64,000 nucleotides of DNA from Euryarchaeota archaeon UBA557 (GTDB lineage: Archaea; Thermoplasmatota; Poseidoniia; Poseidoniales; Thalassarchaeaceae), in NCBI GenBank assembly GCA_002503285.1, contig DARI01000009.1, positions 9,049 to 73,048 of the forward strand, read 5' to 3'. The notes under the pieces are model-generated. The model was not told where the DNA came from, ran no database searches, and saw nothing but the letters and a program-made list of their open reading frames with translations. Made by a program: the position numbers and the translations under genes. Below, piece after piece: positions 17,363-19,660 of the stretch. Position 1 is the stretch's first letter. The number at the start of each line of letters is the position of its first letter.

Positions 17363-18445
17363 ATGAATGAACGCAAAGGGATTCAAGATTTATCTAAATC
17401 ATTAAAATTTTTAGAAGAACAGGCGACTTTTACAAAGGCAATAATAATTACAGGATTAATAATCTCTGCATCTGTATTATATCTTACATTTAATGTAAAT
17501 TATGATGAATGTGAAGATGAAAACAACTGTCTTATTATAGCGTTTGAAGTCAAAGATACCTATTTAATATGGGATAAAAATCCGCAACATCTTGCAGATA
17601 AGTTACATATATTAACCGGTATGGATGTGGAAATTTATCCTGTTTCGAATTCAGGTGCGGCTATTGAAGCAGTTGACAAAGGAAATGCAGATTTGGCGTT
17701 TTTGGATGGAGCAGCTGCATGGCTGGCATGGGAGGTCTACGATCTTGAAGTTCTAGCCGCTGAACAAAAGGCAGATGGTAGAGTATATTATAATGCAACT
17801 GCATGGGTCAAATCTGATTCAGATATGGCCAACGCCTACTTCGATGATGACGAGTCTACAGATCCATTTGCATTAATGGAAGGCAAAACATCTTGCCATA
17901 CGGGTTGGTTAAAGAGTGCTGGAATGTTAATACCAATGGGATATCTCATTGGAAATGGTTATGCCGAAGTTATTGGCAATCCTAATGAGATTGAATCTTT
18001 ACGAAACACTGTTACCAATTTTTTCTCTGAAGAATCAAGTATCCCAGAAGGAGGTACTCAATATTCATCTTATAAAGGGGCATTAAGATGTCTTTCTGAT
18101 GGAACAGGAGATGTTGCACTTGTGAAGGATTCAGTAATCAATTCATATTGTACTGGCTCCAGTGCTGAAAGTTGGTGTCTAGAAGAGGATGAATATGTCA
18201 TGCTTCCTGCCTTTGGACAGGCCCCAAGTCATCCTGCGGTGTATAACCCTGAATATATGAATTCAGAGAAAATTAAATTAATTCAAGATGCTTTAGTGGC
18301 ATTAAATAATGACAATGATGGAACCCAAATTCTTAAGGATTTATTGAATACAGATGGAATGGTAATTACTGATGCACAAACGCATTTAGGGACATATGGA
18401 GAAGCCGTTTCAAATGTACCTGGAATTCAGGCATTTTTTAGTTGA
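17363..18445 (+). CDS. membrane-anchored single-lobe transferrin-family protein
   Basis: N-terminal TM 'AIIITGLIISASVLYLTF'. Transferrin blocks: 'KTSCHTGWLKSAGMLIPMGYL', 'VYYNATAWVKSDS', 'YKGALRCLSDGTGDVALVKDS', 'APSHPAV'. Confidence 0.75.
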   Translation: MNERKGIQDLSKSLKFLEEQATFTKAIIITGLIISASVLYLTFNVNYDECEDENNCLIIAFEVKDTYLIWDKNPQHLADKLHILTGMDVEIYPVSNSGAAIEAVDKGNADLAFLDGAAAWLAWEVYDLEVLAAEQKADGRVYYNATAWVKSDSDMANAYFDDDESTDPFALMEGKTSCHTGWLKSAGMLIPMGYLIGNGYAEVIGNPNEIESLRNTVTNFFSEESSIPEGGTQYSSYKGALRCLSDGTGDVALVKDSVINSYCTGSSAESWCLEEDEYVMLPAFGQAPSHPAVYNPEYMNSEKIKLIQDALVALNNDNDGTQILKDLLNTDGMVITDAQTHLGTYGEAVSNVPGIQAFFS

Positions 18446-18454
18446 GGTATTGTT

Positions 18455-19660
18455 TTGAAATTATTTCCGCTTCTAAGTATATTTTTATTGACTTTCGGAT
18501 TATCCGGGTGCATATTAATCAATGAAGACAAATCCTTCGCTTGGCCAGAAGTCACGGAGTCAGAATGTAATTTTGATAATAATAAAAATCTAACCTGCTC
18601 ACCATTTCTTGATGGTTTTGACGTTCCACATATGTCTGCAATTCATCCTGAAAATGATGAATTATGGATTATTGATCTCAATGGTTTAATATTATCTTGG
18701 GATGGTTTCTCACTGTTCAAAGTTGCTAATTTAAGTTTTTTGATTAGTAATTGTCATTTTGAACAAGGTTTACTTGGTTTCGCCTTTGATGAAAATTTTA
18801 ATTCTACAAATCAAGTTCTACTCTCATATGTTAAGAAAGGTCCATGTGATGGAGATAATGAATCAAACCTATTTCTTGCTTCTGCAATAATAGACAATTC
18901 AGGAATTTTAAATATTTCTTCAATCACAATCATTCAAGAGATATATCAACCATATAGAAATCATAATGGGGGATATTTGCAATCTATTGGAGATAACAAA
19001 TATTTGTGGGGAATAGGCGATGGAGGAGGAAGTCTTGATCCACATTCCAACGGTCAGGACACCTCTACGCCTCTAGGTACAATACAACTTTTTTCTTTTA
19101 TTGATAACGAAATTTATCCCGTTCGGGGAGAAACAAATTCCGACTCATTGGTATTACATAATGGATTACGAAACCCTTGGAGATTTGACTTTGATAATAA
19201 TAATAGATTGTGGGTTACTGATGTAGGAGAAAAGTGTTGGGAAGAAGTAAATCTATTACTAATCAATGAATCAGCAAATTTGGGATGGCCAGAAAGAGAA
19301 GGACTTCACAAAGTTCATTCAAACGGTTATACCCATGAAAATGGGACCTGCTATTACGATGAAGATGCACCACCTGCATCGAACGATTTTACAGATCCAA
19401 TTTCCTCCTATATTCATGATGGAGGAAATTGCTCTATAACCGGAGGATTTTGGATGAATTGGGGCCCAAAATCATTACAAGATGGGTATTTATATGGAGA
19501 TTTCTGTACTGGTTCTATGTGGATACTAAGAGAAATTGAAGGAATTTGGACGGATGAATACATTGGCTCATTTCAAGGAATGATAGTTGGCTTTGGCCGT
19601 GGATTATCTGATGAAATTCTAATTTTTACATGGGACGGATCTATATATTCTCTGAATTAA
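18455..19660 (+). CDS. PQQ-dependent sugar (glucose/sorbosone) dehydrogenase-like beta-propeller lipoprotein
   Basis: Signal plus lipobox-like 'FGLSGC'. 'HNGGYLQ', 'GDGGGSLDPHSNGQD', 'GLRNPWRFDFD', 'LWVTDVGEKCWEEVN' and 'NLGWPEREG'. TTG start 6 nt after a 'GAGGT' Shine-Dalgarno-like sequence. Confidence 0.8.
   Translation: MKLFPLLSIFLLTFGLSGCILINEDKSFAWPEVTESECNFDNNKNLTCSPFLDGFDVPHMSAIHPENDELWIIDLNGLILSWDGFSLFKVANLSFLISNCHFEQGLLGFAFDENFNSTNQVLLSYVKKGPCDGDNESNLFLASAIIDNSGILNISSITIIQEIYQPYRNHNGGYLQSIGDNKYLWGIGDGGGSLDPHSNGQDTSTPLGTIQLFSFIDNEIYPVRGETNSDSLVLHNGLRNPWRFDFDNNNRLWVTDVGEKCWEEVNLLLINESANLGWPEREGLHKVHSNGYTHENGTCYYDEDAPPASNDFTDPISSYIHDGGNCSITGGFWMNWGPKSLQDGYLYGDFCTGSMWILREIEGIWTDEYIGSFQGMIVGFGRGLSDEILIFTWDGSIYSLN

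Follow-up and report, generated by a model that had tools for sequence, protein, structure and literature searches.

We conclude that positions 17318-19660 of the window, the 64-kb stretch of DNA that was analysed as a whole, are probably (at a probability of about 0.72) a two-gene iron-repressed operon of a Thalassarchaeaceae (Marine Group IIb, MGIIb) archaeon, encoding a surface Fe3+-capturing binding protein. When iron is sufficient, an Fe2+-sensing DtxR-type repressor, encoded elsewhere, would bind a palindrome abutting a TATA-like element and block transcription. When iron is scarce, two proteins would be made, a transferrin-like (Tf-like) binding protein and a surface lipoprotein of the pyrroloquinoline quinone (PQQ)-type glucose/sorbosone dehydrogenase (GSDH) family. 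The Tf-like protein, extracellular and tethered to the membrane, would clamp Fe3+ between two subdomains by Asp115, Tyr143, Tyr237 and His290, and a synergistic oxyanion would be held by Thr180, Lys184 and the N-terminus of a helix, as in a transferrin lobe. Delivery of Fe3+ to an ATP-binding cassette (ABC) importer is most likely, since the family is the substrate-binding component of a PhnC/PhnE-type importer in most Poseidoniales; in this lineage the importer would be encoded at another locus. The GSDH-like partner might contribute a reductive or ligand-oxidising release of iron. The operon comprises the following features:

17318..17333, no strand: iron box, near-perfect 16-bp palindrome TTTAGGGCACCCTAAA with the core TTAGG-N4-CCTAA at 17319-17332; putative DtxR-family operator
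17334..17341, plus strand: TATA-like element TTTAAAAC read from the sequence, abutting the box, about 22-29 nt before the ATG
17363..18445, plus strand: Tf-like gene (360 aa, ATG start) for a single-lobe substrate-binding protein, membrane anchored with N-terminus in and C-terminus out
17438..17491, plus strand: hydrophobic signal-anchor helix in the translation, residues A26-F43, then the acidic Cys-containing linker NVNYDECEDENNC
17705..18232, plus strand: span of the predicted metal/anion site codons, from alignments with human transferrin (hTf) and ovotransferrin (D115 17705-07; Y143 17789-91; T180 17900-02; K184 17912-14; Y237 18071-73; H290 18230-32)
18444..18448, plus strand: Shine-Dalgarno-like GAGGT, 6 nt before the TTG of the GSDH-like gene
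18455..19660, plus strand: operon partner, GSDH-family beta-propeller lipoprotein (401 aa, TTG start), lipobox LSGC with C19

Both open reading frames of the initial annotation, together with all the motifs it quoted, are present in the sequence. Translation and profile matches bear out its N-terminal transmembrane anchor and single transferrin-like lobe: the anchor A26-F43 is followed by the acidic linker and by one type-2 binding-protein lobe, as compared to two lobes in the classical transferrin chain, and the gene ends with a TGA stop at 18443-18445. In the AlphaFold 2 model (mean pLDDT, the predicted local distance difference test, 92.6) residues 3-43 form one long N-terminal helix. C50 in the linker occupies the alignment position of the lipobox Cys in lipobox-type paralogues.

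The equivalents of all four Fe3+ ligands can be aligned with the N-lobe of hTf, as had been proposed from the sequence: D115 with D63, Y143 with Y95, Y237 with Y188 and H290 with H249. The anion helix likewise keeps its Thr (T180, equivalent to T120) with Lys in place of the carbonate-binding Arg (K184, equivalent to R124). Further, K255 corresponds to K206, and C178 and C243, which do not vary across the family alignment, match C118 and C194 of the hTf core disulfide; they are a putative disulfide bond of the Tf-like protein. The hTf numbering and residue roles are what we take to be those of established transferrin structural work; the hTf N-lobe reference sequence was checked against PDB 3ve1 (3ve1_B) and E. 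coli PhnD against 3p7i. Among the 120 closest cluster representatives, which hold 171 lobes, the complete D-Y-T-K-Y-H signature is found in 121 lobes, and nearly all of the remaining lobes are fragments.

Comparison with known families places the protein close to transferrin. It scores 70.3 bits in two stretches against Pfam Transferrin (PF00405; gathering threshold 20.3), which matches all 30 aligned family members, and 75.8 bits over nearly its full length against Pfam Phosphonate-bd (PF12974; cutoff 27). The NCBIfam PhnD equivalog model (TIGR03431; 28.1 against a cutoff of 261.1) and the TIGR01098 subfamily model (41.6 against 112.05) are both failed, and no Pfam or NCBIfam match to the FbpA/FutA solute-binding families was obtained at E<=1. 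A phmmer search of all PDB sequences gave 94 matches, the best 60 of which are all transferrin-family chains, down to 1e-23. Alone, the protein scores 41 bits against the hTf N-lobe and 0 bits against E. coli PhnD. A profile built from the alignment of the 30 family members finds ovotransferrin at E 1e-50; a single 99-bit stretch on the ovotransferrin N-lobe aligns the Asp, both Tyr (the second with its GDVAF/LVK motif), the SCHTG...SAG anion helix and the His, so that all four ligands and the anion-site Thr are in register and Lys stands at the Arg position. The same profile gives 95.5 bits on the hTf N-lobe and 29.9 bits on E. coli PhnD, in the latter case in the first domain only; in E. coli PhnD the Tyr corresponding to hTf Tyr95 is shared, and the position of the Asp ligand is occupied by Gly. 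Judged by sequence, the resemblance to transferrin is far beyond chance, and transferrin is a much nearer match to the protein than E. coli PhnD is. In Foldseek searches with the AlphaFold model the best matches were transferrin lobes (E 1.6e-15, template modelling score 0.55-0.60, 23-24% identity).

The evidence for iron regulation comes from the box. It lies 31 nt before the ATG of the Tf-like gene, inside the 58-nt spacer upstream of the gene, and is the only copy of TTAGG-N4-CCTAA in the window; no further copy was found in same-species extensions reaching 10 kb beyond each window end. With one mismatch allowed, 2.1 matches are expected in the window by chance. As a single match in one window means little, the cross-genome pattern carries the weight. 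Related loci totalling 1.22 Mb contain 147 exact boxes as compared to 1.6 expected from shuffled sequences, an approximately 90-fold enrichment, and 144 of them lie just upstream of seven gene types: Tf-like (76), FEA1-related (29), PhnC-like (17), p678 (14), DtxR (5), GDPD-like (2) and flavodoxin (1). Of 77 loci, 69 have an exact box no more than 250 nt ahead of the Tf-like start, at a median distance of 33 nt (interquartile range 28-34), and a copy with no or one mismatch is present in the other eight. The constant distance to the ATG fits a fixed promoter geometry. Three tandem boxes are present in divergent DtxR/Tf-like spacers. A spacing of six nucleotides between the arms gave no relevant matches, N4 being the correct spacing. 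The position of the TATA-like element right after the box would imply a leaderless or short-leader transcript and occlusion of the promoter by the repressor.

The DtxR-family regulator aligns with DtxR of C. diphtheriae and keeps Met10, Cys102, Glu105 and His106, residues of the DtxR primary site. Met10 and Cys102 mark the Fe-responsive DtxR/IdeR proteins, and the Mn-responsive MntR has Asp/Glu there. The iron-capture role that had been suggested for the Tf-like protein therefore gains by the DtxR-type box and its regulon, and the predicted link to iron is now much stronger than it was from the sequence annotation alone. A scan for sigma-70 promoters stayed at chance level in the window (22 against 20.7), and its bacterial model is inapplicable to an archaeon.

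The operon partner begins with the signal peptide and lipobox MKLFPLLSIFLLTFGLSGC. Its TTG start follows the Tf-like stop after 9 nt with no box or promoter-like spacer between them, and the GAGGT sequence fits an internal operon gene; the gap and the separate Shine-Dalgarno-like sequence are as initially described. Co-transcription of the two genes is further supported by synteny, as the GSDH-like gene stands immediately downstream of the transmembrane-type Tf-like gene in 45 of 49 assessable loci. Concerning its family, the protein scores 58.9 bits against Pfam GSDH (PF07995; cutoff 25) and stays far below the cutoff of NCBIfam TIGR03606 (29.8 against 434.55). Alignment with the soluble glucose dehydrogenase (sGDH) of Acinetobacter reveals conservation of the catalytic His (H170) and the PQQ-contacting residues R239/N240, which we take to be His144 and Arg228/Asn229 of sGDH, and these positions are conserved in 54 of 54 orthologues. 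A redox function of the partner in iron release is speculation.

A GC hairpin followed by T6 (CCTGGAATTCAGG, window 18419-18439) lies within the last Tf-like codons, just before the GSDH-like start, and could partly terminate transcription between the two genes; hairpin-plus-T sites occur in the window at chance level (3 against 2.0). At the other end of the operon, panD (aspartate decarboxylase, 161.8 bits; window 19641-20009, minus strand) is convergent and overlaps the 3' end of the GSDH-like gene by 20 nt. Upstream, 58 nt before the Tf-like gene as the initial annotation had it, ends a further gene:

16711..17304, plus strand: short GDPD-like gene, conserved upstream neighbour outside the box-controlled unit (Pfam GDPD 28.7 bits, N-terminal half only)

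It precedes the Tf-like gene in 35 of 56 transmembrane-type loci. As the box sits between the GDPD-like and the Tf-like genes, the regulated unit would consist of the Tf-like and GSDH-like genes.

Gene context in relatives was surveyed by tblastn of neighbour proteins against 80 loci (loci and proteins are designated by L and P numbers, respectively). Two types of Tf-like gene can be distinguished. The lipobox type of MGIIa and MGIII has one or two lobes, and in 15 of 16 loci ATPase and permease genes come directly after it. A divergent DtxR-family gene and a flavodoxin gene often stand before it, and an HmuY-like gene after it. The transmembrane-anchored type, to which the window protein belongs, is that of MGIIb and often lies in an island with ABC and permease genes, a FEA1-related lipoprotein gene, a two-lobe paralogue, p678, p164 and p327. 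Here 18 of 26 well-flanked loci have an importer within reach, but the window's own clade (L013, L014) has none. In another Thermoplasmatota contig (L094), DtxR, Tf-like, ABC and permease genes follow each other in this order on one strand. The neighbour ATPases match PhnC best. From the Phosphonate-bd score and the PhnE-like permease, annotation pipelines infer a phosphonate or phosphate ligand. The initial annotation had noted that no importer is adjacent. This is true for the window and for 10 kb beyond each end, but untrue for most relatives, and because the family serves a PhnC/PhnE-type ABC importer in these, the absence would be a local feature of gene order in the lineage. Neither a cognate importer nor DtxR, Fea1, p678, p164 or p327 is found in the window, the only ABC system of which is of the LIV type.

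Several neighbours in these islands were recorded. The FEA1-related lipoprotein (NF038033, 348 bits; for example L004:2699-3955, minus strand) occurs in the same islands as the Tf-like genes, and its genes carry the TTAGG-N4-CCTAA box (29 boxes in L011-L090). NF038033 is the family of the algal phytotransferrin ISIP2a. The shared islands and the shared box suggest that many MGIIb genomes hold two unrelated transferrin-like iron-capture proteins under one regulator. The conserved p678, p164 and p327 (L004:8279-11839), which have no significant Pfam domain, follow the Tf-like/GSDH pair in many MGIIb loci. Two-lobe paralogues were seen at L027, L029-L031 and L039 (e.g. L027:3177-5400, minus strand; proteins P0121-P0123, P0127, P0129, P0135). 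In those of MGIIb the N-lobes read D-Y-T-K-F/Y-D/N and the C-lobes are without ligands. The archaeal two-lobe proteins P0121 and P0122 stem from duplications independent of the eukaryotic one, and both lobes of P0121 are intact and sisters in the tree described below. Outside the Thermoplasmatota, binding proteins annotated as PhnD from the ammonia-oxidising Nitrosopumilus (L091:6001-7089) and from an Asgard archaeon (Heimdallarchaeota, L092:6001-6984) carry the transferrin residues Asp/Tyr/Thr/Tyr/His at the corresponding positions. Gly occupies the anion-site Arg/Lys position, so that they read D-Y-T-G-Y-H; they share the VPSH motif, are without the disulfide and lie in operons of substrate-binding protein (SBP), ABC and permease genes. 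The Nitrosopumilus gene adjoins CbtA/CbtB metal-transport genes.

The Tf-like protein is no isolated oddity but a member of a large family. An identical protein is present on many marine metagenome contigs, and the closest genome (98%) is a Candidatus Thalassarchaeaceae metagenome-assembled genome (MAG). Relatives occur at 395 places in species-representative genomes. The 80 places of which the taxonomy was inspected are Poseidoniales of MGIIa, MGIIb and MGIII, save three contigs in bacterial MAGs, and more distant members come from other Thermoplasmatota. The three bacterial assignments (Rhodobacteraceae, L020; Pedosphaera, L052; Yoonia, L074) were rejected as evidence of bacterial occurrence, the contigs being probably mis-binned, with a gene order typical of Marine Group II (MGII); they show GDPD/Tf-like/GSDH or Tf-like/ABC arrangements. 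An exhaustive search of 1.84 billion cluster representatives gave 319 matches, which comprise the archaeal Tf-like family, named PhnD-like by JGI and NCBI, eukaryotic transferrins and a few archaeal PhnD-like proteins. Among the sequences searched, the archaeal family was found here to be the apparent closest prokaryotic relative of animal transferrin. Among eukaryotes, unicellular holozoans (Chromosphaera, Creolimax, Amoebidium, Ichthyophonus, Abeoforma and a 'Clim'-prefixed record, probably Corallochytrium) have the closest proteins, which are multi-lobed and 34-40% identical. The lobes of these unicellular holozoans share the anion-site Lys and the Cys pair with the archaeal family, Lys at the Arg position being the rule among ichthyosporean transferrin lobes.

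Relationships were examined in a lobe-level neighbour-joining tree (Scoredist distances, rooted on E. coli PhnD), which is provisional, as a distance tree of divergent sequences. Thermoplasmatota and eukaryotic transferrins form sister clades, with the Nitrosopumilus-type and Heimdall proteins outside; within the eukaryotes, unicellular holozoans are basal, and animals and ulvophyte algae make up a 99% crown. A first tree that included long-branch degenerate lobes had weak deep support, with 36% for eukaryote monophyly. In a second tree, from which these lobes had been pruned, bootstrap support is 92% for eukaryotes plus Thermoplasmatota against the outgroups, 84% for monophyly of the Thermoplasmatota and 62% for that of the eukaryotes. 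Within the animal crown stand the many-lobed ulvophyte transferrins of Bryopsis (P0146, 2619 aa, 7 lobes) and Caulerpa (P0162), a placement that may be artefactual or go back to a transfer of its own.

As the outgroups are prokaryotic and the operon context with ABC genes is retained, an origin of the transferrin site in prokaryotes is favoured over transfer from a eukaryote to an archaeon. A broader scenario may be drawn, which we advance tentatively and at somewhat less than even odds. In it, the Fe3+ site, the anion site and the core disulfide of transferrin would have arisen in binding proteins of archaeal PhnCDE-derived importers; the Thermoplasmatota/Poseidoniales family, which DtxR would control to this day, would be the extant prokaryotic sister of eukaryotic transferrin, an early holozoan would have acquired transferrin from such a marine archaeon, and the MGII 'phosphonate transporter' would be a high-affinity iron importer. 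The opposite direction, with a transferrin lobe recently passed from a eukaryote to a marine archaeon by horizontal transfer, is extremely improbable, and we rejected it on composition and phylogeny. The best PDB and profile matches are indeed eukaryotic, as are the ichthyosporean multi-lobe proteins with their 34-40% identity. However, the GC content at third codon positions of the Tf-like gene (0.238) is close to that of neighbouring genes (0.22-0.23), and relatives are spread over MGIIa, MGIIb, MGIII and other Thermoplasmatota. Furthermore, the monophyletic Thermoplasmatota (84%) are sister to the eukaryotes, with archaeal SBPs as the next outgroups, and the family retains its prokaryotic SBP-ABC operon context. 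As to the direction of transfer raised by the initial annotation, composition is native and the family stands as a sister of the eukaryotic transferrins, not among them; a recent eukaryotic source is not indicated.

Several observations weigh against the iron-capture operon proposed here and have to be set against other explanations of the same locus. At the anion site, Lys184 stands where the carbonate-binding Arg is lost, with Thr180 conserved. Of the refuting outcome named in the initial annotation, a phosphonate family as best profile match together with unaligned ligands, only the first half occurs: Phosphonate-bd is marginally higher than Transferrin and the top match, but the ligands are fully aligned and conserved. 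Alternatively, the Tf-like protein might belong to the PhnD type and supply a PhnCE importer with phosphonate, phosphite or another phosphorus oxyanion, the transferrin-like residues binding the oxyanion in place of a metal. The PhnD-like database names would agree with this, as would neighbour permeases with scores above the PhnE equivalog cutoff (218 and 227 bits against 216.7), an upstream GDPD-like gene of a kind usually tied to phosphorus scavenging, and the report of phosphonate transport as a core MGII trait (Tully 2019). In Foldseek, moreover, PtxB and ArrX are nearly as good as the transferrin lobes (E about 1.5e-14, 16-17% identity), and with scores so close, fold alone cannot discriminate between the two types. 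Yet the scores under the PhnD equivalog and TIGR01098 models are a fraction of the respective cutoffs, and E. coli PhnD aligns in its first domain only, with Gly for the Asp ligand. The Asp/Tyr/Tyr/His set is near-invariant and typical of hard-metal coordination. The box is common to FEA1-related and DtxR genes, and the regulator has the ligands of an Fe-type DtxR, whereas the GDPD-like gene lies outside the regulated unit, the box being downstream of it. We therefore consider a phosphorus ligand unlikely. Binding of another hard metal or complex (Mn3+, Al3+, Ti4+, a ferric chelate) together with a Mn-sensing regulator appears very unlikely. Transferrin sites are promiscuous for hard cations, with PDB matches holding Al, Ti, Bi, Yb and Cr; the regulator's best NCBIfam match is an MntR model, if far below its cutoff; the Nitrosopumilus relative adjoins CbtA/CbtB, and in MGIII the operon has an HmuY-like gene after it. 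On the other side stand Met10 and Cys102 of the regulator, the marks of Fe-selective DtxR/IdeR, a regulon with FEA1-related lipoprotein genes among its members and, in several loci, flavodoxin genes close by, and a two-tyrosinate site as is typical of Fe3+ proteins.

A more serious alternative, albeit in itself rather doubtful, accepts iron binding and dispenses with the ABC importer: the tethered protein would concentrate Fe3+ on the cell surface, the co-transcribed PQQ-type lipoprotein would reduce or release it, and an unrelated Fe2+ or metal permease would import it. In the approximately 84 kb available for this species (the window and 10 kb at each end on same-species contigs), neither a PhnCE-type importer nor a DtxR gene or second box was found around the Tf-like gene, which counts against the explanation that we favour. 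PhnCE genes are also absent within 8-10 kb in 8 of 26 well-flanked transmembrane-type loci, and the pairing of Tf-like with GSDH-like genes (45/49, with catalytic residues in 54/54) is much tighter than that with ABC genes. In addition, the MGIIb two-lobe paralogues that do stand beside ABC genes are a distinct group with partly degenerate ligands, and this weakens the pairing of binding protein and importer. Against an importer-free route, the transmembrane-type gene is directly divergent from ABC and BPD-type permease genes in many MGIIb loci (L054-L071), all other branches of the family are in classical SBP-ABC-permease operons, and no Fe2+ permease is linked to the Tf-like/GSDH pair. An iron-repressed operon whose binding protein serves an importer encoded elsewhere remains the explanation that we favour.

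Other features of the window were noted in passing. A giant protein of 2679 aa (window 20156-28195) has repeated D-x-D-x-D-G-type acidic motifs resembling calcium-binding repeats and a C-terminal hydrophobic segment, and Pfam gives it a faint Big_1 match only. The LIV-type ABC importer (47548-56088) has fused components, with a 1071-aa SBP_bac_3 plus Peripla_BP_6/ANF_receptor binding protein, a 1256-aa double BPD_transp_2 permease and two ATPases. An NAD-dependent DNA ligase of the bacterial LigA type with BRCT domain (30064-32214), MCM (57672-59927) and a GatB/GatE-family amidotransferase subunit (59985-62036) are encoded as well. A gene resembling the Eco57I restriction-modification family (11964-14006, minus strand) encodes 680 aa here and 660 aa in the near-identical contig L003, which suggests strain-level variation. 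An Rfam scan found three tRNAs only.

The uncultured Marine Group II archaea rank with the most abundant archaea of the plankton. Their iron acquisition is hardly discussed in the core MGII literature. Tully (2019) lists "transport of phosphonates" among the core MGII traits, and neither iron nor phosphonate comes up in the work of Rinke (2018), Orellana (2019) and Damashek (2021) on MGII. PMC7676907 credits McQuaid et al. (2018) with the proposal that phosphonate-binding proteins gave rise to transferrin and phytotransferrin. Our literature search retrieved no paper that ties transferrin to Poseidoniales, Euryarchaeota or PhnD in this sense; McQuaid et al. (2018) may have sampled these archaea. 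If the family binds Fe3+, the core phosphonate-transport trait of MGII would need reinterpretation, and these archaea would compete with diatoms and bacteria for inorganic iron, perhaps with a dependence on carbonate or other anions. The iron box would then provide a sequence handle on the iron-starvation regulon of an uncultured lineage and on iron stress in metatranscriptomes. Moreover, the proposed transition from PhnD to transferrin would become testable at the bench with a family that has a complete site and a PhnCE-type importer.

The proposed system resembles several known ones in part. With the eukaryotic transferrin lobe (PF00405) the protein shares the type-2 fold, the Asp/Tyr/Tyr/His set, the anion-site Thr at a helix N-terminus, the motifs SCHTG...SAG, Y-x-GA-x-x-CL-x-x-G-x-GDVAF/L-VK and VPSH/APSH, the C118-C194 pair and the Lys206 equivalent. 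Unlike eukaryotic transferrin, it is single-lobed and membrane-anchored, is without most of the eukaryotic disulfides and insertions, and has Lys for the anion-binding Arg, as in ichthyosporean lobes; its gene lies in a prokaryotic operon, putatively repressed via a DtxR-type box, and its relatives appear to serve an ABC importer as opposed to receptor-mediated endocytosis. PhnD, PtxB and HtxB (PF12974; PDB 3p7i, 5lq1) belong to the same Pfam clan and fold, the PF12974 gathering score is passed, and the relatives' partner permease and ATPase are PhnE- and PhnC-like; in contrast to these proteins, the disulfide and the Tyr and His motifs of the second domain resemble those of transferrin, and the regulatory and genomic context is that of iron, not Pho. 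In its proposed role the system is akin to FbpA/FutA/IdiA of FbpABC/FutABC, with extracytoplasmic tyrosinate Fe3+ binding, a synergistic anion, an ABC importer and iron-responsive repression. The FbpA type, however, is a different binding-protein family whose resemblance to transferrin is regarded as convergent, whereas the Tf-like family is a sequence homologue of transferrin. A cell-surface role in Fe3+ capture in marine plankton, predicted here for the Tf-like protein, is also that of the phytotransferrin ISIP2a/FEA1 (PF07692; NF038033), which belongs to another family and has no gene in the window. Finally, as in DtxR/IdeR regulons, a palindromic operator with TTAGG/CCTAA arms stands at the promoters of putative iron-uptake genes and a DtxR-family gene adjoins boxes in relatives. 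The arms resemble those of what we take to be the 19-bp actinobacterial DtxR consensus, TTAGGTTAGCCTAACCTAA, but are only 4 nt apart, which gives a shorter putative site of 14-16 bp at an archaeal promoter with an adjoining TATA box.

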